Shown here: piece by piece, positions 9,652 through 60,177 of the stretch
Layout of the letters: every line of letters starts with the position of its first letter
Numbering within the stretch: position 1 is the first letter of the stretch
NCBI GenBank assembly: GCA_964443275.1
Contig: CAYUCE010000002.1
Span: 358-64,357, forward strand
Direction of reading: 5' to 3'
Origin: an uncultured Thermotogae bacterium
Lineage (GTDB): Bacteria; Bipolaricaulota; Bipolaricaulia; CAYUCE01
DNA length: 64,000 nt
Position numbers and translations under genes: made by a program
The notes under the pieces: model-generated
Database searches by the model: none
What the model saw: only the letters and a program-made list of their open reading frames with translations
Told to the model about the DNA's origin: nothing

Positions 9652-10782
9652 TTATTCTAAAAATAAATTCAAATATTCACCATATCCTTCTTCTTCAAGC
9701 TTATCTTTAGGTATAAATTTAATAGCCGCAGAGTTAATGCAGTACCTTAATCCAGTCGGTTCAGGTCCATCATTGAATACGTGGCCCAAGTGGGAGTCGG
9801 CGCATCTGCTCCTCACCTCAGTTCTGGTCATACCGTGGCTGCTATCCATATTTTCTACTATGTATTCTGTCTCCAGTGGTTTGATGAAGCTGGGCCATCC
9901 GGAACCGCTTTGGAACTTGTCCGCGGAGCTAAAAAGAGGCTCGCCTGATACTATGTCCACATATATGCCTTCCTCTTTGTTATTCCAGTATTTGTTTTGG
10001 AAAGGGGGTTCAGTCCCGTTTTCCTGGGTAACTTTATATTGTAGCGAAGTAAGCATCTTTCTAAGCTTTTCATCTGAGGGTTTTTGGTAATTTTCACAAC
10101 TTTTGGCTAAATGTCCTTCCCCCGGAGGTTTCGAATTATTCCAAGTCTCCTCCAGAAAATCCTCCCTTCCGGAGCCTTTTTTATATGACCCGTACCGGGA
10201 AGGATTTTTCTTATAGTAATCCTGATGGTATTCCTCTGCCGGGTAGAACTTCCTGAAGGCCAGTATATCAGTCACTATAGGATCATCGAATTTACCTGAT
10301 TTCTTTAACCCCGCCTTCGATTTTTCGGCAATCTCCTTCTGTATTTCATCATGATAGAAAATAGCCGTCCTATATTGCGGGCCCCGATCAGCAAACTGAC
10401 CTCCGGAGTCGGTGGGATCAATATGGCGCCAATAGATGTCAAGGAGTTCTTCATAGCTTATCTCAGTTGGGTCGAAAGTGATTTGAACTGTCTCCCGGTG
10501 GCCGGTCGTTCCAGATGATACTTGCTGGTAAGTGGGATTTTCCACCTCTCCGCCCGTGTATCCGGCTGTAACGTTCTTAACTCCTTCCAAGTTCACAAAT
10601 GGTGGTACCATGCACCAAAAGCAACCCCCAGCGAAGGTGGCTCTTTCCAACCCCTCACCTAGTTCATCTTGGTCCTCTTTATCCTGGGTACTTTGATAGC
10701 CCTTATTAAAAGCAGTTAGATTGGTGTATAGTACAAAACCCAGGCATAGTAAGATTATGGTCATCAGCACAGCCTTCTTCAT
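9652..10782 (-). CDS. msrAB: Bifunctional peptide-methionine sulfoxide reductase MsrA/MsrB with N-terminal signal peptide
   Basis: MsrA motif [11 protein letters not shown] and MsrB motif [11 protein letters not shown] are both present, behind a hydrophobic N-terminus. Confidence 0.9.
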
Positions 10783-11036
10783 TTATTTCACTTCCTATTT
10801 TTTAATAAATATTGTTAAATAATGTTTCTTACTTCTATTATTTATAGCGAATATTTTTGGCAGATGCCAGCTTATAGCTGTACAAAATTTAATTTTTGAA
10901 TATTTGAATCTCGGTTTAAGTGCTGATCAAGCCCCGAACAATTTATTGGAAGAAGATAAGTAGTTTTTACATGAAAAATGGGACTTAACCTAGAAGCAAG
11001 AGCACGTTTATAAATAGGGCCTACTGTCTTTATATT

Positions 11037-13034
11037 CTATTTAACCTTTGAGCCGATTTGCATATCGGAGTCAGTTTGCAAAAGCGAAACCTTGCCCTCC
11101 TTTCCTTCTGCGGCCAGCAGCATGCATTCTGATTTTTGGCCAAACAAAGTAGCCGGTTCCAAATTGGTTAATACTACAGCTTTTTTATTTAGCAAAACTT
11201 CTTTGGAATAGTGGTTTTTCAAACCGGCCACGCTAGATAGCTTTCTGTCCTTACCTACATCCACAGACAGCTTGTAAAGTTTATCAGAACCTTCGATATC
11301 TTCCACTTCCACCACTTTTCCTACTTTAATATCCATCTTCTGGAACTGCTCAAATGGAATCATAGCTTTCTTTTCCTCCTTTGTTTTCTTCAGTTGATCA
11401 TATTGGCTCTTAAGCTGGTCTATATCAATTTTTCCCAAAAGTGCTCTAGCCTTGCCCACCGGTCTTCCAGTCTCTATCTTTTCCATGGCCTCAAATCTAG
11501 TAGGATTGATTTTTAGTAGTTTAAATACCTTTTCAGAAAAGGAAGGCACAAACGGATAAAGCATTATGGAGATGGCTTTTACTAAATGCAGTGCGGAGAC
11601 CACTACCTGGGGTTTGTCCCCTTCCCAGGGCTTTTCCTTCTGGAAGTATTCGTTTCCAACTACCGAAAGTCCGGCAATCTCTTTAAGTGCAGGGGCCAGA
11701 TGGCCATCCTCGATAAGGTTTTCTACTGTGGCTTTGGTTTCCTTTATTTGTTTCAAAATATTCTGTTGAGTGGAAGCCTCAGGGATCATACTTTCATGAG
11801 AGCTATTGATAAATGAAACTACCCGGTTAACGAAGTTACTTATATTATCTACAAAGACCCCGTTTACGGATTTTTCCAGCTCATTCCAGGAAAAGTTGAT
11901 GTCTCTTTTCTCCGGCCGTGAGTAAAGCAGGTAAAACCTCCAATAGACCGGATCTAACAATTGGAGGGCATCATCGCAGTAAAGTCCGATCCCTTTTGAT
12001 TTGGAAAAGGCCTTCCCATCTATCCAGTTCATATACTCAATGGCTGAAATTTGATCGGGCAGATGATAACCCTGGCTGGAAGCAATTAATTGACCGGGAA
12101 AAATTAGAGCATGAAAGGGAATATTGTCTTTAGCTTGCGTATATACCTGCTTGATATCTTCCCCAAACCAGAAAGTTTTCCACTCCTCAGGGTCACCTTT
12201 GTTTTTAAAATATTCTATGGTGGCCGAAACGTAGCCCAGGGCGGCTTCCGCCCAGACATAAATTACCTTACCTTCTGCCCCTTCAAAAGGTGCCGGTATT
12301 CCCCATTTTATATCCCTGGTTATGGCCCGCGGTTTTAGCCCCTGATCTATCATAGATTGGGTAAATCTTTTGACGTTTCCCTCCCAATCTCTAGCCCCCA
12401 CATATTCTTTTAGCTTAGGTGCGAGCTTTTCCAAATCCAGATACCAATGCTTGGTATTCTTAAAAGTTATCTCTTTTCCGTTACAGAAGGCACATCGAGG
12501 ATTTATTAACTCTTCCGGCTCCAGCAGCGCCCCACAATTATCGCATTGATTACCCCGGGCCTCCCGATATCCGCATTGTGGACACTCACCTTCGATAAAC
12601 CTATCAGCGAGGAACTTCTCGCATTCGGTGCAGTAAGCCCTTTTTTCTTCCTTGGATTTAATATAACCGTTTCGGTCCATCTGTTTATGAATTTGTTGGA
12701 CAAACTCCTTATGCACCGGCGATTCGGTGGTAGTGTAATTATCTATCTGGATATTGAAAGCCTCAATTATATTCAAGATTTTTCCGTGTACTTGTGAGGC
12801 AAGCTCCTCAGGTTTAAGGCCGGCTTTTTGGGCTTCGTACTCAATTCTGGTCCCGTGGGCGTCTGTGCCGGATACATGCAACGTATTATATCCTTTCATT
12901 CTATAATAACGAGTAAAGACGCAGCCGGAGAGAAGACAGGCCAGCAAATTCCCTAGGTGAGGTACGTTATGCGCATACGGCCAGGCGCTTGCTATCAAGA
13001 TATTTTTAACTTTGTTTTCCAGAATCATTCTCAC
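11037..13034 (-). CDS. metG: Methionyl-tRNA synthetase with C-terminal tRNA-binding (EMAP-like) domain
   Basis: HIGH-like PYAHNVPHLGN, a zinc knuckle (CPQCG...CDNCG), KMSKS-like KFSKSKG, and a C-terminal DIKVGKVVEVEDIEGSDKLYKLSVDVG. Confidence 0.95.
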   Translation of the reverse strand: MRMILENKVKNILIASAWPYAHNVPHLGNLLACLLSGCVFTRYYRMKGYNTLHVSGTDAHGTRIEYEAQKAGLKPEELASQVHGKILNIIEAFNIQIDNYTTTESPVHKEFVQQIHKQMDRNGYIKSKEEKRAYCTECEKFLADRFIEGECPQCGYREARGNQCDNCGALLEPEELINPRCAFCNGKEITFKNTKHWYLDLEKLAPKLKEYVGARDWEGNVKRFTQSMIDQGLKPRAITRDIKWGIPAPFEGAEGKVIYVWAEAALGYVSATIEYFKNKGDPEEWKTFWFGEDIKQVYTQAKDNIPFHALIFPGQLIASSQGYHLPDQISAIEYMNWIDGKAFSKSKGIGLYCDDALQLLDPVYWRFYLLYSRPEKRDINFSWNELEKSVNGVFVDNISNFVNRVVSFINSSHESMIPEASTQQNILKQIKETKATVENLIEDGHLAPALKEIAGLSVVGNEYFQKEKPWEGDKPQVVVSALHLVKAISIMLYPFVPSFSEKVFKLLKINPTRFEAMEKIETGRPVGKARALLGKIDIDQLKSQYDQLKKTKEEKKAMIPFEQFQKMDIKVGKVVEVEDIEGSDKLYKLSVDVGKDRKLSSVAGLKNHYSKEVLLNKKAVVLTNLEPATLFGQKSECMLLAAEGKEGKVSLLQTDSDMQIGSKVK

Positions 13035-35405: not shown

Positions 35406-36722
35406 GTGACTAACTTTATTAACTTAAAAAACGAACTTCCCGGAAAGAAGTCACAAGAAATCGCCCAAAAGAGAAAGATGTATGTGACTCAAGCCGTGGG
35501 CAAACAATCGCTTTGCCCCGGTTATATTGCCAGTGGTGATGGCGCTTTAGTTACTGACGTAGACGGAAATACCTTTATCGATTTTACCGGGGGTTGGGGA
35601 TGTTTAATTGTGGGTCATACTCCAACCAGAGTAGTGAAAGCAATTAAAGAACAAGCTGAGAAATATCTTCACACGGACTTTTCAGCAGTTCCGTACGAAC
35701 CCTACGTCGAGCTTGCCGAGCGATTGGTTAAGCTGGCCCCCGGCGATTGGCCCAAAAAGGCGGCCTTTTTTAATAGTGGAGCAGAAGCGGTGGAAAATGC
35801 GGTAAAGATATCACGTGCTTACACCGGAAGGAAAGCAGTGATAGTATTCGAAAATGCCTTTCACGGCCGGACACTTCTAACTATGACCATGACCCACAAA
35901 GCCAAACCCTATAAGTACAAGTTTGGCCCATTTGCCTCCGATATCTACCGGCTACCCTATCCCAACTCCTATCGTTCTGATGGAAAATCAAAAGACTGGG
36001 AGCGGGAACTTACTTCTCTGGTCAATCCTGAAGAGGTGGCTTGCTTAGTAATAGAGCCCATACAAGGTGAAGGGGGGTTTTTAGTTCCTCCGGATGGATT
36101 CTTAAAACAATTACGGGATCTGTGTGACAAGTACGGTATCTTGTTTGTAGCAGATGAGATTCAAACCGGTATGGGCAGGACGGGGAAGATGTTTGCTATC
36201 CAACATTGGGACATCGAACCGGACATTATTACAGTAGCCAAATCGCTGGCTGCCGGGCTTCCTCTATCCGGGGTAATCGCCAAAAAAGAAGTCATCGATT
36301 CTCTTATCGAGGGAGCCATCGGAGGTACATATTGTGGAAATCCACTTGCCTGCCGGGCAGCCATCGAGGTCTTAAACCTTATCCAGGAAGAAAATCTCCT
36401 TTCACGAGCCGAAAAAATCGGCAAACAAATAAAGGAAAGATTTACTTCGATGAAGGAAAAGTACGAAATCATAGGCCATATACGGGGTATAGGAGCCATG
36501 GTGGGAATGGAATTTGTTAAAGATAGAGATACTAAGGAGCCTGCTTCAGAGGCTACTTCCCAGATCGTTAAAGATTGTGTTTCACATGGACTGCTTGTTC
36601 CCAGCTGCGGAATTTACAATAACGTAATCAGGTTGCTAGTGCCTTTGGTAATTACCGACTCCCAGCTAAGCGAGGGCCGTGACGTATTGGAAGATGCAGT
36701 CGCTAGAGTTGCAGGAATCTAA
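35406..36722 (+). CDS. Class-III PLP-dependent aminotransferase (GabT/ornithine/putrescine aminotransferase-like), copy A
   Basis: 438 aa. The Lys-PLP region is DEIQTGMGRTGKMFA. The central about 1.1 kb is near-identical to copy B at 48598..49917. Confidence 0.85.
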   Translation: MTNFINLKNELPGKKSQEIAQKRKMYVTQAVGKQSLCPGYIASGDGALVTDVDGNTFIDFTGGWGCLIVGHTPTRVVKAIKEQAEKYLHTDFSAVPYEPYVELAERLVKLAPGDWPKKAAFFNSGAEAVENAVKISRAYTGRKAVIVFENAFHGRTLLTMTMTHKAKPYKYKFGPFASDIYRLPYPNSYRSDGKSKDWERELTSLVNPEEVACLVIEPIQGEGGFLVPPDGFLKQLRDLCDKYGILFVADEIQTGMGRTGKMFAIQHWDIEPDIITVAKSLAAGLPLSGVIAKKEVIDSLIEGAIGGTYCGNPLACRAAIEVLNLIQEENLLSRAEKIGKQIKERFTSMKEKYEIIGHIRGIGAMVGMEFVKDRDTKEPASEATSQIVKDCVSHGLLVPSCGIYNNVIRLLVPLVITDSQLSEGRDVLEDAVARVAGI

Positions 36723-48597: not shown

Positions 48598-49917
48598 ATG
48601 TCTACTCGACCTAGTTTTATCTCTTTTAGCACCTGTTCCCCTGGCCCAAAGTCAAAGGAAATTGCCAAGAAGAGAGAGAGGTTTGTAACTAATGCATTGG
48701 GCAGGCAATCTCTTTGTCCCGGTTATATTGCCAGTGGTGATGGCGCTTTGGTCACCGACATAGACGGAAATACCTTTATCGATTTTACCGGGGGTTGGGG
48801 ATGTTTAATCGTCGGTCATACTCCAACCAGAGTAGTGAAAGCAATTAAAGAACAAGCTGAGAAATATCTTCACACGGACTTTTCAGCAGTTCCGTACGAA
48901 CCCTACGTCGAGCTTGCCGAGCGATTGGTTAAGCTGGCCCCCGGCGATTGGCCCAAAAAGGCGGCCTTTTTTAATAGTGGAGCAGAAGCGGTGGAAAATG
49001 CGGTAAAGATATCACGTGCTTACACCGGAAGGAAAGCAGTGATAGTATTCGAAAATGCCTTTCACGGCCGGACACTTCTAACTATGACCATGACCCACAA
49101 AGCCAAACCCTATAAGTACAAGTTTGGCCCATTTGCCTCCGATATCTACCGGCTACCCTATCCCAACTCCTATCGTTCTGATGGAAAATCAAAAGACTGG
49201 GAGCGGGAACTTACTTCTCTGGTCAATCCTGAAGAGGTGGCTTGCTTAGTAATAGAGCCCATACAAGGTGAAGGGGGGTTTTTAGTTCCTCCGGATGGAT
49301 TCTTAAAACAATTACGGGATCTGTGTGACAAGTACGGTATCTTGTTTGTAGCAGATGAGATTCAAACCGGTATGGGCAGGACGGGGAAGATGTTTGCTAT
49401 CCAACATTGGGACATCGAACCGGACATTATTACAGTAGCCAAATCGCTGGCTGCCGGGCTTCCTCTATCCGGGGTAATCGCCAAAAAAGAAGTCATCGAT
49501 TCTCTTATCGAGGGAGCCATCGGAGGTACATATTGTGGAAATCCACTTGCCTGCCGGGCAGCCATCGAGGTCTTAAACCTTATCCAGGAAGAAAATCTCC
49601 TTTCACGAGCCGAAAAAATCGGCAAACAAATAAAGGAAAGATTTACTTCGATGAAGGAAAAGTACGAAATCATAGGCCATATACGGGGTATAGGAGCCAT
49701 GGTGGGAATGGAATTTGTTAAAGATAGAGATACTAAGGAGCCTGCTTCAGAGGCTACTTCCCAGATCGTTAAAGATTGTGTTTCACATGGACTGCTTGTT
49801 CCCAGCTGCGGAATTTACAATAACGTAATCAGATTACTGGTGCCTTTGGTAATTACCGACTCCCAGCTAAGCGAGGGCTTGGACGTGTTAGAGGAGGCGA
49901 TCTCCAGTATTGCTTAA
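48598..49917 (+). CDS. Class-III PLP-dependent aminotransferase, copy B
   Basis: 439 aa. Identical to copy A between QSLCPGYIASGDG and VITDSQLSEG. The termini are divergent. Confidence 0.85.
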   Translation: MSTRPSFISFSTCSPGPKSKEIAKKRERFVTNALGRQSLCPGYIASGDGALVTDIDGNTFIDFTGGWGCLIVGHTPTRVVKAIKEQAEKYLHTDFSAVPYEPYVELAERLVKLAPGDWPKKAAFFNSGAEAVENAVKISRAYTGRKAVIVFENAFHGRTLLTMTMTHKAKPYKYKFGPFASDIYRLPYPNSYRSDGKSKDWERELTSLVNPEEVACLVIEPIQGEGGFLVPPDGFLKQLRDLCDKYGILFVADEIQTGMGRTGKMFAIQHWDIEPDIITVAKSLAAGLPLSGVIAKKEVIDSLIEGAIGGTYCGNPLACRAAIEVLNLIQEENLLSRAEKIGKQIKERFTSMKEKYEIIGHIRGIGAMVGMEFVKDRDTKEPASEATSQIVKDCVSHGLLVPSCGIYNNVIRLLVPLVITDSQLSEGLDVLEEAISSIA

Positions 49918-51017: not shown

Positions 51018-51728
51018 CTAACCGGCAGTGGGAATTTTAAAACTATCCTCTGAAATTTTCCCATCCTCCAGATATATGACCCGTTTTACCCTTTCTAAAA
51101 GTCGGGTATCATGGGTAGCAAATAGAAAGGTCACCTGTTGGTTTTCATTTAATTTTCGCATCAAATCGATCAAATTAAGGCTGGCCTCAGTATCCAGATT
51201 GGCAGTTGGTTCATCGGCCAATACTAAAGATGGGCCAGCGGCTACCGCTCTAGCTACAGCCACCCGTTGCTGTTGACCCCCGGAGAGCTGATTGGGACGG
51301 CGATCTGCTAATTGGTCCACATCCAGGGCTTCGAGAACGGACATGGCCCTATCTTTGCGCTTGGATTTTGCCTGCCCTTGAAGTTCCATGACAAACTCGG
51401 CATTCTCCAAGGCGGTGAGTACTGGAAGCAGATTATATGCCTGAAATACAAAACCCAACTCGTACAAGCGAAATTCCGCCAGTTGACCTTTAGACAGTTG
51501 GTTTAGCTCTTTTCCGTTTACCCAGATCTTTCCCCCCGTAGGCTGAAGCAAACCGCCAACAATATGAAGCAGGGTGGATTTACCCGATCCGGACGGTCCG
51601 GCCACGCTCGCATACTCCCCTTTTTCTATCCTTAGATCAATCCCCCGTAAGGCCGGAGTCTCTACCGAATCCACCTTGTAGGTCATCTCTAACTTCTCAC
51701 AACGTACAATTTTTTTTCGATCTTCCAT
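51018..51728 (-). CDS. ABC transporter ATP-binding protein (LolD/MacB-type)
   Basis: Walker A GPSGSGKST, signature LSGGQQQRVA and Walker B LVLADEPT. Length is 236 aa. Confidence 0.9.
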   Translation of the reverse strand: MEDRKKIVRCEKLEMTYKVDSVETPALRGIDLRIEKGEYASVAGPSGSGKSTLLHIVGGLLQPTGGKIWVNGKELNQLSKGQLAEFRLYELGFVFQAYNLLPVLTALENAEFVMELQGQAKSKRKDRAMSVLEALDVDQLADRRPNQLSGGQQQRVAVARAVAAGPSLVLADEPTANLDTEASLNLIDLMRKLNENQQVTFLFATHDTRLLERVKRVIYLEDGKISEDSFKIPTAG

Positions 51729-51928
51729 ATTAACTCCTTATTTATCAGTTAATGGTCTATTTCTAAACTTCACATTTAATTTTAAGTTAGACTTTGTAGA
51801 GGAAGGCTTCAGCCTTCCATGTTAATTGATTTCGATACAAAAAAACATCATGGAACTCTAAAACTTTGCGCTACCCACAAACAACCGGAATATATTCTCT
51901 CCAATTGCAATTTTTTTTGTAGCGGAAA

Positions 51929-52006
51929 CTCTACTATGCTGCTTCGCAGCTCTCTGCTTCGCAAGCTTCGCAGAAGCGTAGAAGAGGTCGTAGAAGCGAA
52001 GAAGAG
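51929..52006. repeat. Left copy of an inverted repeat of about 79 bp (cttcgc/gcgaag-rich) flanking the Lol-like cassette
   Basis: ctctactatgctgcttcgcagctctctgcttcgcaagcttcgcagaagcgtagaagaggtcgtagaagcgaagaagag equals the reverse complement of 56138-56216, apart from one indel and a few mismatches. Confidence 0.6.
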
Positions 52007-52048
52007 CCTTTAGGTTTTCATCTTATCTGGGATATCCTCCATATTTGT

Positions 52049-53302
52049 TTACTCATACCGCATGGCCTCCACCGGATCTAGCCCGGCCGCCTGCCTGGCT
52101 GGCCACCAGGCGGCCACCAAAGCAATAAACATCATGGTCACCGCCGAAATCACCATGTCAAAGGTAGTTATTCGTAAGTACATAACGGATTGAAAGCCTA
52201 CTGCTGACAGCTCTTCTTGATATTCTTGATATACTGGTAGTGCCAGTCCTTGACTTCCCCACAGTACCAGTCCAACCCCAATTCCAGTGCCCACTGCAGC
52301 CCCAATTATAGTTAGGAGTAAAGCTTCTGTGCTGATCATACCCATGATACGGCGCTTGGACGCTCCCAAAGCGCTAACTACCCCCAATTCACGGATTCTC
52401 TCCAACACCGATAAGTATAAGGTATTTAACACTACTAAGCCGGCTAGAAGATAGAAAATAGCAGCAAAAACAGCATACAGTGGTCTTAAAATTCGTAAAA
52501 TCCCTGCTCTCTGGGGGGCCAATTCCTTCCAAGTCTCCACCAGGAATTCTTCCCCCAGTTTACTTTGCAGCCGGTTTGCTACCTGGTCGATCTTAGCGCT
52601 GTCCCAGGGACCGGTTACCCCTTTCACCATGGCCACCGCAGTAGTGGCAGCAGTGGAGGATTTTATAAGCTGCCGGGCATCTTTTAAGGTTATCTGTAGT
52701 AGCGATCGGTTAAGCTCCGAAGAAGGGGCATCCAACTCCCCTACAATTTTAGGCACTAAGACACTTGATCCTATCTGGGGATGGGAAACTAAAAGTATAA
52801 TTGATTGTCCCGACTCTACTTTTAGATTTTCAAGCAGTAACTTTCCGGCCACCGCTTTGTTACTATCATCAGCTTTTAGATACCGTCCCTCTTTTACCCA
52901 ATTATCGACGGGGCTAATCTTTGTGGATTCTTCCGGTTCCACCCCTTGAATCATTATGGGTTTTGATCTATCTTGGTTAGCTGCCAGAGCTGGAAGCTCA
53001 AGCTTTAGAGTAAACCATTCAATATCCGGATCTCTAGATAGGGCATTGGTAATGGGCCCGGTATCCCACATTATGGGATAAGCTTCACCTGTGGTCTTGG
53101 ATCGATAATCGGCAGGGTGAATTTGAATATGTCCAGTTTCTAGTTTCACTGTATTATCAAACAGGCTTCTTTCAAACGCTCCGGAAAAACCCCACATTAA
53201 ATCTAGTATAAGCACCGGAATGAGAACCGCCATCAGGGTAAGAATACTCCTGCGTTTGTTTCTCAAAAGATTTCTAAAAGCTAGTCTCAAGAGGAGCCGC
53301 AA
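52049..53302 (-). CDS. ABC transporter permease, FtsX/MacB/LolE-like
   Basis: 417 aa with an N-terminal TM helix, a large periplasmic domain and a C-terminal FtsX four-helix bundle. Confidence 0.8.
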   Translation of the reverse strand: MRLLLRLAFRNLLRNKRRSILTLMAVLIPVLILDLMWGFSGAFERSLFDNTVKLETGHIQIHPADYRSKTTGEAYPIMWDTGPITNALSRDPDIEWFTLKLELPALAANQDRSKPIMIQGVEPEESTKISPVDNWVKEGRYLKADDSNKAVAGKLLLENLKVESGQSIILLVSHPQIGSSVLVPKIVGELDAPSSELNRSLLQITLKDARQLIKSSTAATTAVAMVKGVTGPWDSAKIDQVANRLQSKLGEEFLVETWKELAPQRAGILRILRPLYAVFAAIFYLLAGLVVLNTLYLSVLERIRELGVVSALGASKRRIMGMISTEALLLTIIGAAVGTGIGVGLVLWGSQGLALPVYQEYQEELSAVGFQSVMYLRITTFDMVISAVTMMFIALVAAWWPARQAAGLDPVEAMRYE

Positions 53303-54132
53303 AACTCATCTCCTTTCACTAAACAGTCCAGGGTAAACCTTTCCGGCGGTATATCGATTCCAAAATCATAGCTTTCTATCTCTTCTATCGTATAGCGGCC
53401 TTCCCGCTTAAGGTCGGTAACTTCCGTTTTTAAAGGGATAACTCTTTTTTCATCTACCCGAGTGAAATCAGAAAATTCCGCCTCCCGGATTAAGGAGTCC
53501 CTTTGATCGAAGTAGTGGATAGTCAAAACAGAACAATCAGATCCTCTGATATCGATCTCCAATTTTCCAAATACCACTGGGGCTTTTGGCTTAGGGGTTA
53601 ACTTAAGTCGGGAGATTTTAATTTCTTCGTTCTCATCTCCCTTTTTTGTTTTAGTACCCAACAATTGAACATCGTAATTTTCGTTCAGGGTACCCCTGTA
53701 GACATCTTCCAAATACAAATCCGAACCTAAAAATTCCGAGGTCATGGTGGTTTGAGGTAGCGAAATAGCTTGTCCGGCGGCTGGTTTAAAATACCAAAGC
53801 TTTTCATCTTTCAATAAGTATCCGGACCCCGCTTCATCTTCCGGAGCCAGAATCCGGATAAAAGCGGGGTCTCCTCCTTCCTCGCTCCATACTTCTAGCC
53901 TATAGTTTTGCGTATAATCAGGTCGATAAATCTGAATGGAAACAACGCTGTAAAACGCAGTTTCTACCCAGTTTGCCCGGGCACAATCCAGAAGTTCCAT
54001 GGCTTTATTATCTGATGAAGATTGGGAGTAACTTATTCCAGTCAACGAAACTGCCAAAATACATATAAAAACAAACGTCTTAAACTTTAAATCGTAATTT
54101 CTAAACATGATGCATAGCCTCCGTTGGTTCAA
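53287..54132 (-). CDS. LolA-like outer-membrane lipoprotein-sorting family protein (periplasmic)
   Basis: Signal peptide, then a beta-rich body resembling the LolA-like family found between FtsX permeases. Length is 281 aa. Confidence 0.45.
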   Translation of the reverse strand: MNQRRLCIMFRNYDLKFKTFVFICILAVSLTGISYSQSSSDNKAMELLDCARANWVETAFYSVVSIQIYRPDYTQNYRLEVWSEEGGDPAFIRILAPEDEAGSGYLLKDEKLWYFKPAAGQAISLPQTTMTSEFLGSDLYLEDVYRGTLNENYDVQLLGTKTKKGDENEEIKISRLKLTPKPKAPVVFGKLEIDIRGSDCSVLTIHYFDQRDSLIREAEFSDFTRVDEKRVIPLKTEVTDLKREGRYTIEEIESYDFGIDIPPERFTLDCLVKGDEFCGSS

Positions 54133-55315
54133 TTTTTGCGGTTCTTCTAGCCGGGTACCAAGCGGCCATAATTCCAGCTAATATCACCACTGAAAGGCTG
54201 TATAGCCAATACCAGCCTGAGGCTTCTGGATATACCACGGTGGGAATGCCAAAACCTGCGGTAAGTTCGGAAAAAGCCCCAAAATCTAGTCCTACCTGAG
54301 AAAGCCAGTAATTAAAAACATATCCCACCCCTCCCCCCAAAGCGAACCCAAAGCCGGAGGATATTATAGATTCAGCAATCACCATCCGGGCTAGTTTCTT
54401 AGGCTTCATCCCCAAAGCAATCATTACTCCAAATTCCCTGGTCCTTTCTAAAACTGTAAACATGACCGTATTGGCTACTCCAAATCCTGCTAAGATAGCT
54501 AATAACAACATTATGGGGATCATTTCGATACGCTCGACAACCATCATCTCTCTTAGCAAAGGGTTTAAATCCATAAAGGAGGAGATTATCAATTTATCGT
54601 TTAATCTTTCTTTTAGCTCAGTTGCAACCCGGTTAGGGACTGAGCCATCTTTAACTGAGATTATTACTTCAGTGGCTCCGTTTATTCCGCTCAGTTTTTG
54701 GGCATCCTCCAGCGAAATATAAATCACGCTCTGATTTAATTCAGCTAAGCTAGTATGGTATAATCCCACTACATTAAAAGCCAGGGATTTCGGGCCCTCT
54801 TTTCCCTGCAGGTCGATCACCACTCGTTCACCAACTCGTGCATCCAGATCCTGGGCTATTTTCTGACTAAGGAGGATCTCACCAATTGACTTTATAAACT
54901 CTCCCTTCACCACCGCCTGGTCAATAATAGTAACCTCTAATTCCTGGATAGGATCAACCCCCCTTAGTTGCATACCCGAAGTCCCGTAAGCAGTGCTTAA
55001 AAGTCCCTCTAACTCCATTCTAGGAGCCCATCCTTCAATGGCACCAAATTCTTTCAAATTATCCTCTATAGTTTTTATTTGATCGCTGGATAAGGCATTA
55101 TCCAAGCTGGGGTCCTCTAGATAACCTGATTTATGAATTTGCAAATCACCGGTATTAATATTTTTCTGGGAATTAACAGTAGTGGTCAGAAAGCCTTCCA
55201 CCAACCCCCAAAGAACCACAATAGCCCAGGTTCCCACAGCTACGATAGCTATCATTAGCAGAGTACGCTTTTTATTCCTCCATAAATTTCGCCAAGCCAA
55301 ACGAAGTGTAGTCAT
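54101..55315 (-). CDS. ABC transporter permease, FtsX/MacB/LolC-like
   Basis: 404 aa with the same architecture as 52049..53302. Confidence 0.8.
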   Translation of the reverse strand: MTTLRLAWRNLWRNKKRTLLMIAIVAVGTWAIVVLWGLVEGFLTTTVNSQKNINTGDLQIHKSGYLEDPSLDNALSSDQIKTIEDNLKEFGAIEGWAPRMELEGLLSTAYGTSGMQLRGVDPIQELEVTIIDQAVVKGEFIKSIGEILLSQKIAQDLDARVGERVVIDLQGKEGPKSLAFNVVGLYHTSLAELNQSVIYISLEDAQKLSGINGATEVIISVKDGSVPNRVATELKERLNDKLIISSFMDLNPLLREMMVVERIEMIPIMLLLAILAGFGVANTVMFTVLERTREFGVMIALGMKPKKLARMVIAESIISSGFGFALGGGVGYVFNYWLSQVGLDFGAFSELTAGFGIPTVVYPEASGWYWLYSLSVVILAGIMAAWYPARRTAKIEPTEAMHHV

Positions 55316-55365
55316 TTGTTATTCCATCCTTTCATGCTCCCGTTATTCACGGACTTCTCTTTCTA

Positions 55366-55983
55366 TCATTGTTTTATTCCGTTTTTTATTACGTATAGCA
55401 TTTCATCTACCATTCGCATGAATTCCTTTTCTCTTGGTGCTTCCTTATCTTTAAAAAGATAATTTATGATAGACAAATTAAATGAAATAAGCATCTGGGT
55501 TACTACATCTTTATCTATCTCGGGATTTAAATTACCACTATCGATACCTCTTTGCAATAATTCCTTCAAAAATTCTTCGCTTCTCGGTAAGGCATCATCG
55601 AATATTTCACCTTTTAGATCAACATCACCTGCATTTAAAATTCTTTGTCCTATGAGAGCAAGCTGGGGATTTTTTCGAGCAAACTCAATTGCAGCTAAAT
55701 AAAGATCTCTTAAAGTTTGGAAAAAATCAAAACCGGCCCTTTCCCGTATTACCTCGCTCATAACTTGAAGTTTCTTCTTCCCGGCTATATTCAAGATATG
55801 CTTAAATAGATCCTTTTTATCCTGAAAATACTGATAAAAACTTCCCTTGGGAATATCGGCCTTTTGGACAATTCTGTTTACAGTTGCCTGGTGGAAAGGA
55901 TGATTCACAAACTCATCTATAGCCGCATCCAGTATTCTCTGTCGTTTCTCTTCTGCTAGGTTAAAAAACGTATCCGTAGGCAT
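55366..55983 (-). CDS. TetR/AcrR-family transcriptional regulator
   Basis: N-terminal HTH RILDAAIDEFVNHPFHQATVNRIVQKADIPKGSFYQYF. The likely start is the ATG at 55983 (MPTDTFF); the track uses a GTG at 55995. Confidence 0.85.
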   Translation of the reverse strand: MPTDTFFNLAEEKRQRILDAAIDEFVNHPFHQATVNRIVQKADIPKGSFYQYFQDKKDLFKHILNIAGKKKLQVMSEVIRERAGFDFFQTLRDLYLAAIEFARKNPQLALIGQRILNAGDVDLKGEIFDDALPRSEEFLKELLQRGIDSGNLNPEIDKDVVTQMLISFNLSIINYLFKDKEAPREKEFMRMVDEMLYVIKNGIKQ

Positions 55984-55992
55984 TTTGCATAT

Positions 55993-56030
55993 CACATGAC
56001 TAAGTAGTCATGTGACCATTGAGTCACATT
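55993..56030. promoter_or_regulatory. Two overlapping operator-like palindromes upstream of tetR
   Basis: CACATGACTA-ag-TAGTCATGTG (55993-56014) and ATGTGAC-cattga-GTCACAT (56010-56029) lie immediately upstream of the tetR start. Confidence 0.4.
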
Positions 56031-56137
56031 ATATACCAAAGTCGGGGGGTTGTCAAGGCTCGCTTGATTTGAATTCTACCTCAATTCTGATGTAGCCTGT
56101 TTTCGTATTTGAATTTCTCGTACTTCGCTTCTTCGAA

Positions 56138-56216
56138 CTCTTCTCCGCTTCTACGACCTCTTCTACGCTTCTGCGAAGCTTGCGAAGCAGAGAGCTACTG
56201 AAGTAGCATAGTAGAG
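56138..56216. repeat. Right copy of the inverted repeat of about 79 bp
   Basis: Reverse complement of 51929-52006 at about 94 percent identity. It is intergenic between tetR and the 56277 gene. Confidence 0.6.
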
Positions 56217-56276
56217 GCTACGTAGTAGCGTAGAAGAGTATGCTTTGATTAAGACTAAGTAGAGGAGGAATATTAT

Positions 56277-58943
56277 ATGAAAAGAAACTTATTTATTATC
56301 GGTTTTCTCGGCTTGCTTATTTTTATTTCCCTTTCTATAAACGTGTTTGGATGGTCGGATTGGAAGACTATTAAGACCGAACATTTCACCATTTTATATA
56401 AATCCGAATATGAGAACCAGGCCTGGGAAGTCCTAAAAACTATGGAACATTACCGGCCCCAAGTGGAAAAGCTTACCGGTAATAAAGCCAAACACCTACC
56501 CATGGTGATCGAAGATGTGGGAACTTTGACCAACGGTATGGCTAATCCAATTTTCTACAACATTCATCTTTTTACCTATCCTCCCTCCGGCTCTTTGGCT
56601 TTTACCCAAAACTGGTGGTCGCTGGTGGGGGTTCACGAATACACTCACCTGCTACATTTAACTAAAGCCAGCGGAATTCCAAACCTTTTGTCCTCCCTTT
56701 TTGGCAATATCTATGCCCCTAATTTATGGTCTCCGGGATGGGCGGTTGAGGGCATAACCGTTTACAGCGAGTCACAAATTTCTCCCTATCAGGGAAGGCT
56801 AAACGATGGGTACTTTGATGCCTATATGGGGGCAAGAGTGGCTGCTAATCGCTTCCCCTCCCTTCTAACCGCCACCTACGGGCCGCTGGAGTTTCCCTCT
56901 GGTTCAATCTACCTTTACGGCGGGAAATTCTTTAACTATTTAGCTAGGACTTATGGAGAAGATAAATTCGCCCAATTTTTTGAAAATTACGGTTCCTCGA
57001 CCCTCTCCCTTTACTCATCGCTTCTTCCCTTCATAGGCATTGATCAATCAGCCAAAAAAGTCTACGGGAAAGCATTCCCTCAGTTGTGGAGGGAGTGGGG
57101 AAAATACGAATCTGATAGGTTCAAAGACTTTCGCCTTGAAGGTGAGCGAATAACTGATCACGGCTGGTACGTAGAGAATCCAGCAATTTACGGAAACAAA
57201 ATATATTATCAAAGACAATATCCGGTAAAAACCGGCCCGTTTAATCAATTTGATTTCAGCAAAATTGTGGCTAAAGACCTAACCAGCGGCGAAGAGCGGA
57301 CTGTGGTTTCTACCACTTCCTTTTTTACCACCCCAATGCGGTTTCAGGAAGATAAGCTTTATTACGGAATTGGTGAAATCAAACCCGGTTATGCCAATGC
57401 TACTTTAAACACCTTTGGTTATTACAGCCTAATTTATCAAAAAGACTTATCGACCGGGGAAGAGGAAGTGCTCTTTGAGGACGAACTGCGTGCATTTGAG
57501 GTAACGGGGGACGGGAATATCCTCTATTCGAAAGATTTAAGAGATTCTTTTGGCTCCCAGCTTTACTTATATCATCCGGACATTCAAGGTAAAGAGCTGC
57601 TTTTTAAAACCGACTATTTAATTAATGAGATAGTGGCAGATGGCGATAAAGTAATCGTCTCTGCCCGCAAGGATTGGGAGAATTTTAGCCTCTATAGGTT
57701 GGATCTAAATACGGGTGACTTTACGGCCCTGGTTAAGACTCCCTATGTAGAAAGTAATCTTTCCATGGGGGTGGACAAACTGTTTTACACCGCAAATTAT
57801 GAAGGCAAATATTCCCTGTATTGCTATGATTTTGCTGAAAGTAGGATTTATAGGCTTACCGAAGATGGATTTGCTGGCTCGCCCACCTATGATAAGGCTC
57901 ACGGGACCATCTATTTTATAGGACTTAACACGGATGGCCAGGACGTTTACGCAAAATCGGCGGAATTTATGGAATTTGACCTTCCTGACTTTGAGCCGTC
58001 CGCCCCTCCACAACTTGAACTTGCCAAAAGCGAAGTTAAGGAAGGCGGATACGGTGATAACCTGGCTACTTTGACCCCTAAAATCCGGTTTCCCATAGCC
58101 TCCTATGACGAAAACCCTTCGGCCGGGCTTCTTTTAGTGGGAGGGGATGCGGTGGGAGATTTTTTATATACAGGTATTCTTGGTTACGATTTTGAGGATA
58201 AGCAGCCTAAATTTTTTCTCAACCTAATAAACAATTTCTTTGCCCCCCTCAGCTCTAATATCAGCTTCGGTAATACTGAGGGGACGTTTTTAGCTAATGA
58301 GTGGTCTTTTAACTTGGATGTAAGCTATCCACTTAACAGAAGCCTAGTGACTGGAATGTCCGAACTTAGGTTAGGGACGACCCTTGATTTATCGGAAAAT
58401 TTCACAAGAAAAGTACTGACCCCATATATTTACCTGGGTTATCAATTTCTGGCTACCCGGGGATGGATAAATATCTCCACGCCCTTGGAACGAAAGTCCG
58501 TGGGAAGCAGTATGGACAGGACCGGCCTGTATGCCGAGCTTAGACTACGCCATTTCCTCCCTCCAGAAAAAGAAGTGTTCATAAACCTCAAGGATATTTA
58601 CGATCCGGATAGTCCCAATCCCGTATTTCCAAAAATTAGAGGCTACAGGGAAGCTTTGGACACCAGGTTTGGAGCTACTCTTTCTTTTGATTATTCCAGC
58701 CCCTTACTCCGTATAAGAGATGGTCTGTGGAATCCCAGCATATACTTTGAAGACTTATGTGGAAACTTTTTTATAGACGGTGCGTTTTCATTCCAAGGTC
58801 AGTGGCAGTTGTCAACCGGAATTGAGTTTCATATAGAAACTAGGATCTTAAACGCCATGTCCTCACTTCCTATAGATTTGGGAATTAGGCTAGTATTTAA
58901 TAAGGACGGCGGTTTTGGAATTGAACCTACTTTATATATTTAG
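56277..58943 (+). CDS. Large secreted protein with HExxH zinc-peptidase-like motif and beta-propeller (TolB/WD40-like) repeats
   Basis: Signal peptide, then WSLVGVHEYTHLLHL (HEYTH), repeated DG..(I/L)Y-type propeller blades, and a Tyr/Gly-rich C-terminus. Length is 888 aa. Confidence 0.4.
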   Translation: MKRNLFIIGFLGLLIFISLSINVFGWSDWKTIKTEHFTILYKSEYENQAWEVLKTMEHYRPQVEKLTGNKAKHLPMVIEDVGTLTNGMANPIFYNIHLFTYPPSGSLAFTQNWWSLVGVHEYTHLLHLTKASGIPNLLSSLFGNIYAPNLWSPGWAVEGITVYSESQISPYQGRLNDGYFDAYMGARVAANRFPSLLTATYGPLEFPSGSIYLYGGKFFNYLARTYGEDKFAQFFENYGSSTLSLYSSLLPFIGIDQSAKKVYGKAFPQLWREWGKYESDRFKDFRLEGERITDHGWYVENPAIYGNKIYYQRQYPVKTGPFNQFDFSKIVAKDLTSGEERTVVSTTSFFTTPMRFQEDKLYYGIGEIKPGYANATLNTFGYYSLIYQKDLSTGEEEVLFEDELRAFEVTGDGNILYSKDLRDSFGSQLYLYHPDIQGKELLFKTDYLINEIVADGDKVIVSARKDWENFSLYRLDLNTGDFTALVKTPYVESNLSMGVDKLFYTANYEGKYSLYCYDFAESRIYRLTEDGFAGSPTYDKAHGTIYFIGLNTDGQDVYAKSAEFMEFDLPDFEPSAPPQLELAKSEVKEGGYGDNLATLTPKIRFPIASYDENPSAGLLLVGGDAVGDFLYTGILGYDFEDKQPKFFLNLINNFFAPLSSNISFGNTEGTFLANEWSFNLDVSYPLNRSLVTGMSELRLGTTLDLSENFTRKVLTPYIYLGYQFLATRGWINISTPLERKSVGSSMDRTGLYAELRLRHFLPPEKEVFINLKDIYDPDSPNPVFPKIRGYREALDTRFGATLSFDYSSPLLRIRDGLWNPSIYFEDLCGNFFIDGAFSFQGQWQLSTGIEFHIETRILNAMSSLPIDLGIRLVFNKDGGFGIEPTLYI

Positions 58944-59511: not shown

Positions 59512-60177
59512 GTGAAGACCTATATCTTCCATGTCTCCCTTCCCGGTACCGGAAGGGTGTGGAGAAAGATCCAGATCCGAGCCGACCAAACCTTGGAGGA
59601 TCTACACTTTGCCATCCAGAAAGCCTATCATTGGGATGCCGATCACCTATACTCCTTTTTTATGAGCGGAAAAGTCTGGGACAAAAAGACCGAATACTGC
59701 CTACCAGAAGGTTACAGTCCATGGGGCAAGCCCATAGATGATATAGGAAGAGCGGAAGATAAAAGTGAAAAAGTGGAAAAACCAGATTCCCACCCACAAA
59801 GGCAGGTCGAGGGACTGGAAGCTAAAAGGAGAGAATGGATGGATAAATTTATGGGAATTGACCGAATCCAAGAGATCCAGGGAGTATCTGAAAAAATTGA
59901 AGAAAAAATTAGGGAGGAAATGGGATCGTTTCTAGGAAGAAAGCTTACCTCAACATGGCGCCGCCCCGTAGAGCCCGGTGATGTGCGCAAAACGAAGATA
60001 GAAGACCTAAAGCTTGAGAAAGGCGATGAGTTTATGTATCTTTTCGATTACGGTGATGACCATCGGTTCAAGGTAAGGGTTCACGGCATCCAAGAAGGTA
60101 GTGAAACCACAGATTATCCTACCGTGGTACAGTCAGTAGGAAAGGCCCCCAAGCAATATCCAGGTTGGGATGGATAA
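59512..60177 (+). CDS. Plasmid pRiA4b ORF-3-like family protein
   Basis: YIFHVSLPGTGRVWRKIQIRADQTLEDLHFAIQKAYHWDADHLYSFF, then a C-terminal YLFDYGDDHRFKVRVHGI. This matches the remembered PF07929 architecture. Confidence 0.5.
   Translation: MKTYIFHVSLPGTGRVWRKIQIRADQTLEDLHFAIQKAYHWDADHLYSFFMSGKVWDKKTEYCLPEGYSPWGKPIDDIGRAEDKSEKVEKPDSHPQRQVEGLEAKRREWMDKFMGIDRIQEIQGVSEKIEEKIREEMGSFLGRKLTSTWRRPVEPGDVRKTKIEDLKLEKGDEFMYLFDYGDDHRFKVRVHGIQEGSETTDYPTVVQSVGKAPKQYPGWDG

Follow-up and report, generated by a model that had tools for sequence, protein, structure and literature searches.

A short hairpin-forming repeat as the probable source of the inverted repeats around four genes of an FtsX/LolA-like ABC transporter operon

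In the 64-kb stretch of DNA analysed here (64,000 nucleotides, hereafter the window), the two inverted repeats on either side of a block of four genes are probably one complete and one partial copy of a hairpin-forming repeat of ~105 nt, rather than the marks of a mobile or invertible cassette. This element, which can be described as an imperfect palindrome made up of inverted arrays of a 20-22-nt unit, is most likely a non-autonomous selfish or neutral repeat of the MITE, REP/BIME or ERIC kind, the left copy of which, partial and recent, would have landed in the translation-start region of the ATPase gene, within an operon that was ancestral and tightly coupled. Because both repeats would be copies of one and the same element, the four genes would be bracketed by a mere accident of the copy positions.

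The sequences at 51929-52006 and 56138-56216 are reverse complements at 94.9% identity over 79 columns (MAFFT, blastn), in agreement with the preliminary description, which gave inverted repeats of ~79 bp at about 94%. They differ at four columns and share an identical run of 51 nt, while a repeat search delimited inverted arms of 59 nt with 98% complementarity (51948-52006 and 56138-56196). This pair is the sole long inverted repeat in the window, where a 34-mer taken from the repeat core occurs exactly twice, against zero expected from 100 shuffles, and where no third copy was found by blastn-short. The gene calls made earlier, namely tetR, two FtsX-type permeases and a LolA-like gene with an ATPase gene just outside the left repeat, proved correct by Pfam (Table 1). 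As for the statement that the repeats precisely bracket this block, they do enclose the four genes but only loosely. On the left, 42 nt separate the copy from the stop codon of the permease gene; on the right, the copy is 143 nt upstream of where tetR starts, and the promoter of the tetR operon falls within that distance.

Table 1. Coordinates of the repeat copies, insertion footprint, operon genes and neighbouring signals in the window.
Feature	Position	Strand	Basis
ABC ATPase, cognate last operon gene, outside repeats	51018-51728	-	Pfam ABC_tran
Remaining 166 nt of expanded spacer	51729-51894	-	ends in AAGGAG ribosome-binding site of present ATPase gene
Pseudo-start block 2, AAAAAAAATTGCAATTGGAGAGAA	51895-51918	-	19/24 match to ATPase codons 5-12 (51694-51717)
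115-nt insert splitting the duplicated ATPase start	51919-52033	-	spliced-match analysis, break between 52034 and 51918
Left copy, partial element	51919-52006	.	alignment to right copy
Pseudo-start block 1, AATATGGAGGAT	52034-52045	-	11/12 match to real ATPase start context 51720-51731
FtsX permease (FtsX2)	52049-53302	-	Pfam
LolA_like	53287-54132	-	Pfam
FtsX/MacB_PCD permease	54101-55315	-	Pfam
tetR	55366-55995	-	Pfam
Operator-like palindrome ATGTGAC-N6-GTCACAT adjoining -10 box	56010-56029	.	read from sequence
Perfect sigma-70-type promoter TTGACA-17-TATAAT, tetR operon	56028-56056	-	12/12 consensus matches
Extra partial 20-nt unit, directly outside palindrome	56121-56137	.	part of period-20 array 56126-56177
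Right copy, complete modular imperfect palindrome, 103-105 nt	56137-56241	.	hairpin folding
888-aa secreted protein with HExxH motif	56277-58943	+	translation

The right copy extends beyond the repeat as first described, to 56241, and is itself a palindrome of 103-105 nt. Its termini, ACTCTTCT...AGAAGAGT, form 8 perfect base pairs followed by an imperfect palindrome, and the whole folds into one long hairpin, at -46.9/-49.5 kcal/mol as RNA (z -2.3/-2.9) and at -25.1/-28.8 kcal/mol as DNA (z -4.4/-5.6), with none of 200 shuffles as good for the latter. The arm-to-arm identity is 73%, so that the palindrome is not an assembly artefact. Internally, TRF resolved a period of 20 nt in 2.6 copies at 56126-56177 and a period of 22 nt in 2.2 copies at 56191-56238, the unit of 20-22 nt reading about CTCTTCTACGCTNCTNCGNAGC and containing a 5-bp mini-hairpin in each case. 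All such units in the window fall within the two copies, no isolated unit being found elsewhere in the 64 kb even at 5 mismatches, and the same holds for the five GCTNC-N3-4-GN'AGC mini-hairpins of the window, of which 0.24 were expected. A register-shifted repeat match at the right copy mirrors the same 20-nt periodicity.

In composition, the element stands apart from its surroundings, with a GC content of 49.5-52.6% (49.5% in the right copy) against 31-40% in the flanking intergenic DNA. Open reading frames across it are short and without any match. Between the copies, one compensatory change from G:C to A:T leaves a side hairpin intact in each, a possible sign that the structure is under selection. 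The hairpins might also affect the mRNA wherever they are transcribed. Neither the RYYYAAC nor the GTTRRRY core motif of an integron attC site was present in or near either copy, and no Rfam match pointed to such a site.

Relative to the right copy, which has extra units at both ends, the left copy (78-88 nt) is one-armed, i.e., without the outermost unit of one arm and with a single terminus instead of two. Its homology sets in right at the end of the palindrome, CTCTTCT (52006), and covers a core of 78 nt down to 51929, beyond which a 5-nt indel is followed by GCTAC (51919-51923), also matching. Its array has a period of 20 nt in 2.0 copies at 51968-52006 (TRF), its flanks are unrelated, and when taken alone its folding does not surpass that of shuffles (z -0.5/-0.07 as DNA, 0.1-0.3 as RNA).

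The operon composed of FtsX, LolA-like, FtsX and ATPase genes is found in the same order in nine relatives, where the gaps between FtsX2 and the ATPase gene are -11, -8, 13, 13, 16, 28, 36, 39, and 56 nt, against 320 nt here. The ATPase is 61-75% identical to the ATPases of these relatives and ranks as the permeases do; the gene outside the left repeat is the ortholog, namely the cognate and conserved last gene of the operon, and gene order in the relatives thereby contradicts the notion of a cassette delimited by the repeats. The repeat element is absent from the locus of every relative examined, the nearest usable ones being 59-63% identical in the operon proteins (for a relative at 71%, no contig spans the junction), and this absence from relatives with the same genes likewise speaks against a cassette. 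The assembled orientation of the 4.1-kb segment equals the ancestral gene order common to the nine relatives.

The expanded spacer opens with a duplicate of the first 38 nt of the ATPase gene, 6 nt after the permease stop. In this duplicate, the ATG of block 1 stands where the relatives start their ATPase, and block 2 is separated from it by a 115-nt insert consisting of 27 nt of unrelated sequence plus the left copy. The split match scores 24, compared with a mean of 10.5 for shuffles (sd 2.3, max 18; 0/300 as high) and a mean of 8.3 for real tiles of the window (sd 2.5, max 18; 0/394). The split duplicate and the insert carrying the left copy are an insertion footprint. The permease and the ATPase genes are now separated by the 38-nt gene-start duplicate and about 170 nt of further DNA, and the ATPase would be translated from its own strong ribosome-binding site and no longer by coupling. 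The remaining 166 nt of the spacer resemble neither the ATPase gene nor any other part of the window nor the relatives; they contain a hairpin at 51801-51818 and, like the 27 nt beside the left copy, are left unexplained by the reading as copies of a repeat element. No intrinsic terminator was called at either copy; along the minus strand, UUUCCGCUACAAAAAAAA comes after the left copy.

Searches for mobile machinery returned no recombinase, transposase, invertase or integrase domain in the 49 ORFs of the window that were scanned (Pfam), and neither a RAYT (Y1_Tnp) domain nor an IS with matching ends in the window. The flanks of the right copy, ...CTTCTTCGA and ATGCTTTG, show no direct repeat, i.e., no target-site duplication; likewise, no duplication flanks the whole composite, the outer flanks of which are unrelated. 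Similarity to any known element was absent from Rfam and from plasmids and phages (BLAST), and no real copy turned up when GTDB representative genomes, metagenomes from JGI and contigs of viruses were scanned for exact patterns. Such absence from sequence collections is expected if the genome is unsampled, and gives no positive support either.

In favour of a hairpin-forming repeat with a complete and a partial copy, there are the GC-rich, foreign composition, the exact terminus at 52006, the absence from relatives and, as to age, an identity between the copies (94.9%) that is much higher than that between the arms (73%). Against a mobile family, there is the fact that the known copies number two, separated by 4.2 kb, and that the window contains no other, and against a MITE-like nature, that the full copy has no target-site duplication and that the element is not AT-rich. 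Among the origins put forward in the preliminary description, a MITE or foldback-type remnant is the one favoured, with respect to the foldback structure of the right copy, the left insert in a former gene start and the higher GC content, though not with respect to target-site duplication. The element would have been copied through the action of a transposase whose gene lies elsewhere, or else through a template switch during replication or repair, with the nearby full copy as the template.

Prokaryotic MITEs form hairpins and can have copy numbers as low as 1-22, with partial copies lacking one end, positions both upstream of genes and inside operons, and target-site duplications that decay with age (PMC10969869). 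The element resembles the Correia elements of Neisseria, the ERIC/IRU of enterobacteria, the QMITE of Coxiella, and MITEAba12 in being shorter than 500 bp, non-coding and intergenic and, as far as the full copy goes, in its inverted ends and stable hairpin, the 8 perfect base pairs at those ends comparing with the terminal inverted repeats of about 4-30 bp expected of a MITE; it differs from them in showing two copies but no target-site duplication and no parent IS or transposase in the window, and from typical MITEs in being GC-richer, not AT-richer, than its AT-rich intergenic surroundings. With the RAYT-mobilised REP, BIME, and REPIN, the likeness is one of architecture only, i.e., short palindromic units inverted into a long hairpin, since REPs are accompanied by a RAYT gene and number in the tens to hundreds, and the 64-kb window shows neither. 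REP and BIME elements are intergenic and occur within operons, including the ABC-transporter operons malEFG and hisJQMP. A similarly modular build, with internal tandem units that vary in number between copies, is seen in the BOX elements of pneumococci and in BrickBuilt, a MITE of Porphyromonas that carries minisatellites (PMC4596501); both families have many copies, and their sequences and hosts are unrelated. The closest precedent to the cassette idea is given by the pairs of MITEs flanking integrons or resistance genes in Acinetobacter, where two near-identical elements enclose a segment without recombinase (PMC10969869); in contrast to those composites, the enclosed genes here belong to an ancestral operon that ends, with its last gene, beyond the pair, nine relatives with this gene order lack the repeats, no duplication flanks the composite, and one element is truncated.

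Should the reading as copies of an element hold, it would add a further family to the small palindromic repeats of intergenic DNA, from an uncultivated and poorly sampled lineage close to Candidatus Bipolaricaulota. The locus would also offer a worked example of an insertion that broke the translational coupling of permease and ATPase in a conserved MacB/LolA-like ABC transporter operon and left a legible scar, namely a duplicated gene start and a new ribosome-binding site. For genome scans, it is a caution that a palindromic element can mimic a "terminal inverted repeat" around anything that lies between two copies. Greater importance would come only with proof of inversion or of protein binding.

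A one-off local inverted duplication is an unlikely, if serious, alternative, in which the right palindrome would be the sole original, without any mobile family, and a stalled replication fork or a repair event would once have switched template to this hairpin-prone copy 4.1 kb away, pasting a partial inverted copy plus filler into the region of the ATPase start. It accommodates the two known copies, close together and inverted, the truncation of the left copy on one side, the unrelated 27 nt as filler, the locally duplicated 38-nt target, the lack of a target-site duplication and of a transposase domain, and the absence of a copy from every collection searched. Yet the homology edge at the natural palindrome terminus is more in keeping with an element that has defined ends than with a random template-switch breakpoint, the origin and the modular, GC-rich nature of the right copy would remain unexplained, and the closeness of the copies carries no significance, since two points placed at random in 64 kb fall within 4.2 kb of each other with P about 0.13.

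It is improbable that the units are regulatory arrays, bound by a protein that would co-regulate the ATPase and HExxH genes, possibly via a 4-kb DNA loop. The period of 20-22 nt equals about two helical turns, each copy precedes a gene that faces outward and has the same orientation relative to it, and the one compensatory change preserves a mini-hairpin; nonetheless, near-identity over 79 nt denotes recent copying and not convergent operators, the copies are unequally far from the start codons (36 vs 200 nt), the shared orientation is a 1-in-2 chance, the left copy is inserted in a former gene start with an insert that relatives lack, and there is no conservation in relatives. Moreover, TetR has a better operator candidate, unrelated in sequence, at its own promoter: the ATGTGAC-N6-GTCACAT palindrome, a unique exact match in the window, is a probable TetR binding site. 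The repeat was also considered as a TetR-family operator and rejected, being 81 nt upstream of the -35 box and unrelated in sequence to this palindrome.

Invertons are phase-variable invertible segments, such as fimS, hin, and the Bacteroides promoters. The locus is comparable in that inverted repeats flank a promoter-containing segment, and the preliminary description had accordingly suggested an invertible or excisable segment acted on in trans. A programmed or recombination-driven inversion of the 4.1 kb, by which the permeases would be cut off from the ATPase and read-through would enter the 888-aa gene instead, is however very improbable. It could physically happen on occasion, with 51 nt of perfect and 59 nt of 98% inverted identity, lengths above the minimum for RecA-dependent recombination in E. 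coli, and the segment carries its own promoter. Against it, no such recombinase domain is encoded in the scanned ORFs, whereas known invertons use short repeats adjoining their recombinase; the repeats here far exceed that length, the left one being a truncated derivative, the assembly shows the segment in its ancestral orientation, the segment comprises whole genes with their own promoter, so that a flip would not switch them, and permeases without ATPase amount to a loss of function, not to a switch. Slightly more improbable still is the variant in which a trans-acting recombinase or architectural protein recognises the unit arrays, reversible inversion toggling read-through between the ATPase gene, for a functional transporter, and the HExxH gene; if true, an uncultivated lineage would here switch a block of genes with no recombinase resident in it.

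The chance is close to negligible that both copies are transcribed into a single operon mRNA and base-pair there, with 4.1 kb as the loop, as also proposed initially in the form of a long-range RNA pairing element: 51-59 nt of complementarity would make a very stable duplex on one RNA, but the 12/12 promoter and the operator lie between the right copy and tetR, so that the transcript should start near 56020, downstream of the right copy and excluding 56137-56241, the 36 nt between that copy and the divergent start codon leave no room for a minus-strand promoter further upstream that would lie outside coding DNA, and the right copy would fold on itself anyway. The divergent gene, for the product of which neither Pfam nor PDB gave a match, has the right copy in its 5' region, in the divergent intergenic DNA, together with an AGGAGG ribosome-binding site read from the sequence.

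Two copies of one repeat, reported in the preliminary description as an inverted pair, are borne out by alignment: 51929-52006 and the reverse complement of 56138-56216 are 94.9% identical over 79 columns, with four differing columns and a longest identical run of 51 nt, and a repeat search of the window delimits inverted arms of 59 nt that are 98% complementary (51948-52006 and 56138-56196). A 34-mer taken from the core occurs exactly twice in the window, where 0 occurrences are expected, and neither a third copy nor any other long inverted repeat was found within the 64 kb. The right copy extends past 56216 to about 56241 and constitutes an imperfect palindrome of 103-105 nt (terminal sequence of the 105-nt element, ACTCTTCT...), which is predicted to form a single long hairpin, both as RNA (-46.9/-49.5 kcal/mol, z -2.3/-2.9) and as DNA (z -4.4/-5.6, with 0 of 200 shuffles equally good). 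Only 73% identity is shared by its two arms, which marks it as an evolved sequence and not an artefact of assembly or amplification. Each arm consists of a short array of a 20-22-nt unit (see table), and every unit encloses a 5-bp mini-hairpin, GCTNC-N3-4-GN'AGC; all five occurrences of this motif in the window lie inside the two copies (0.24 expected), and no isolated unit was found elsewhere in the window with up to five mismatches allowed. The left copy is partial: it comprises one unit, the tip and another two units, without the last unit at the outer end of one arm, and its predicted folding by itself does not surpass that of shuffles. Of the four positions at which the copies differ, three fall within one side mini-hairpin and keep its pairing (a G:C to A:T change and a change in a loop base). 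The GC content of the element is 49.5-52.6%, against 31-40% in intergenic DNA. Since the element is palindromic, any two copies mimic inverted terminal repeats of whatever DNA lies between them.

Coordinates of the features discussed (positions in the window)
Feature	Coordinates	Strand	Remark
tetR	55366-55995	minus	
FtsX/MacB_PCD permease	54101-55315	minus	
LolA_like protein	53287-54132	minus	
Second FtsX permease	52049-53302	minus	
ABC ATPase	51018-51728	minus	beyond left repeat
Unit array, right copy	56126-56177		period 20 x 2.6 (TRF)
Unit array, right copy	56191-56238		period 22 x 2.2 (TRF)
Unit array, left copy	51968-52006		period 20 x 2.0 (TRF)
Sigma-70 promoter	56056-56028	minus	between right copy and tetR
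Palindrome ATGTGAC-N6-GTCACAT	56010-56029		abuts promoter
Spacer hairpin GGAAGGC-TTCA-GCCTTCC	51801-51818		perfect 7-bp stem
888-aa secreted protein	56277-58943	plus	
PRiA4_ORF3 (PF07929) protein	59512-60177	plus	3.3 kb right of complete copy
Class-III aminotransferase paralogues	35406-36722 and 48598-49917		13 kb apart
Direct repeat, 300 nt	35448-35747 and 48649-48948		inside the two paralogues
LptF/LptG-LptD_N fusion ORF, 1188 aa	18114-21680	plus	

The gene content first described for the enclosed segment, namely tetR, two FtsX permeases and a LolA_like gene with the ATPase gene left outside, is correct; its reading as a cassette delimited by the repeats is not. In nine independent relatives, FtsX, LolA-like, FtsX and ABC ATPase genes follow each other in identical order on a single strand, and the second permease gene is separated from the ATPase gene by -11, -8, 13, 13, 16, 28, 36, 39 and 56 nt, compared with 320 nt in the window. 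The window ATPase is 61-75% identical to those of the relatives, with a ranking that parallels that of the permeases, and on these sequence relations is the cognate orthologue. In the synteny comparison suggested in the preliminary description, neither the element nor a comparable palindrome was found in the relatives' loci, equivalent intergenic positions included. Taken together, conserved order, short gaps and an orthologous ATPase in loci devoid of the element indicate that the operon is ancestral and spans the left repeat. The upstream regulator varies among relatives (TetR, MarR or none), as do the neighbouring genes. The nearest homologues are at most 71% identical, the named ones belonging to Candidatus Bipolaricaulota or Fraserbacteria, and no protein at least 90% identical was present in the protein collection searched. 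In L010, the locus of the closest long-contig relative (GCA_012974725.1), the ATPase gene is directly followed by 1.6 kb without called genes (9996-11593), in which inverted repeats were not found.

The enlarged permease-ATPase spacer carries an insertion footprint. On the transcribed strand, 6 nt past the permease stop, it begins with AATATGGAGGAT, which matches the true ATPase start context, AATATGGAAGAT, at 11 of 12 positions, and AAAAAAAATTGCAATTGGAGAGAA, which follows the left repeat immediately, agrees with ATPase codons 5-12 at 19 of 24 positions. The distance between these blocks is 2 nt in the real gene and 115 nt in the spacer (52033-51919), where 27 nt of unrelated sequence and the repeat copy lie between them. 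For the split match the score is 24, compared with a mean of 10.5 (sd 2.3, maximum 18) in 300 dinucleotide shuffles and of 8.3 (sd 2.5, maximum 18) in 394 real tiles of the window. A match of this strength at the very position where relatives start their ATPase gene indicates that a former ATPase start was duplicated and, afterwards or simultaneously, interrupted by the repeat. The partial copy would be a recent insertion that widened the junction of permease and ATPase genes in an old operon. Homology between the copies begins exactly at the palindrome terminus on one side. Today's ATPase gene is equipped with a separate ribosome-binding site, AAGGAG, so that translational coupling to the permease has presumably been lost. 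The idea that the whole spacer arose by tandem duplication of the ATPase 5' region and then decayed was rejected, the score beyond the first 38 nt (3.0) equalling the shuffle mean (3.03), and a weak Walker-A-like blastx match in the spacer was judged noise. For a further 166 nt of the spacer (51729-51894), no similar sequence was found in the ATPase gene, elsewhere in the window or at the loci of the relatives; this part contains a perfect hairpin (see table).

We consider it reasonably probable that the element represents a new type of small non-coding repeat, palindromic and modular in build, of the MITE, REP-BIME or ERIC kind (defining features in PMC10969869), represented by one complete copy and one partial, recently inserted copy. 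We class it as working like such repeats; formal MITE membership is not established because it has no target-site duplication, around either the complete copy or the pair, no parent element in the window and no AT-richness, and within the window is confined to the two copies. Of the initial proposals, the MITE or foldback-type remnant is the best supported. Rfam holds no family matching the repeat. Scans with a 23-mer of 185,579 representative genomes (two matches, both within coding regions of actinobacterial MAGs of high GC content and attributed to chance), with a 29-mer of JGI metagenomes and with a 22-mer of viral contigs gave no real copy, and blastn against plasmids and phages no match, in collections containing neither the source genome nor any close relative. 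A degenerate-pattern metagenome scan without matches is a weak negative, the pattern fitting one arm only in the window; a six-frame pseudo-protein of the element had no match at E<=10 among 5.8 billion proteins, an uninformative search because even the 64-aa ORF that covers the left copy in the window itself was never called. The main rival, which we regard as unlikely, is that the right palindrome was duplicated just once, locally and in inverted orientation, by templated copying. That the 20-22-nt units are binding-site arrays seems rather improbable. As no U-tract follows either copy, the repeat was rejected as a terminator; an attC site is not supported.

An invertible or excisable segment of 4.1 kb, also suggested at first, appears very improbable. 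With 51 identical bases, occasional inversion of the RecA type is physically possible, but there is no sign that inversion is used: the 49 ORFs spanning the window are, by Pfam, ordinary chromosomal housekeeping genes (e.g., DnaE, enolase, three tRNA synthetases, UvrC and LptF/G) and include no transposase, integrase, invertase or RAYT domain. A PRiA4_ORF3 protein is encoded to the right of the complete copy; this domain is a frequent companion of mobile DNA.

Long-range RNA pairing of the two copies, the last of the initial proposals, is scarcely credible, since a sigma-70 promoter with 12/12 consensus (TTGACA-17-TATAAT) separates the right copy from tetR; the operon mRNA should begin near 56020, leaving out the right copy and with it the basis for such a stem. 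The adjoining 7-6-7 palindrome (ATGTGACCATTGAGTCACAT), unique in the window, is sized and placed like an operator of the TetR family and is probably an autoregulatory one; the repeat itself was dropped as TetR operator in favour of this better candidate. On its other side, the right copy ends 36 nt from the start codon, preceded by a strong ribosome-binding site, of an 888-aa secreted protein with a zinc-protease-type motif (HEYTH, i.e., HExxH), and hence lies within the promoter or 5' UTR of that gene. The protein has no match in Pfam or PDB, with a faint resemblance to TolB propellers only, and was discarded as a conserved operon partner, since it shows no homology with the protease-like gene that lies divergently in L006, another relative's locus.

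Elsewhere in the window, two class-III aminotransferase paralogues share a direct repeat of 92% identity, which suggests recent duplication or gene conversion between them. A further ORF joins an LptF/LptG permease domain to an LptD_N/LptA-like domain, an unusual fusion, which implies that this uncultivated lineage has a pathway for outer-membrane LPS transport.
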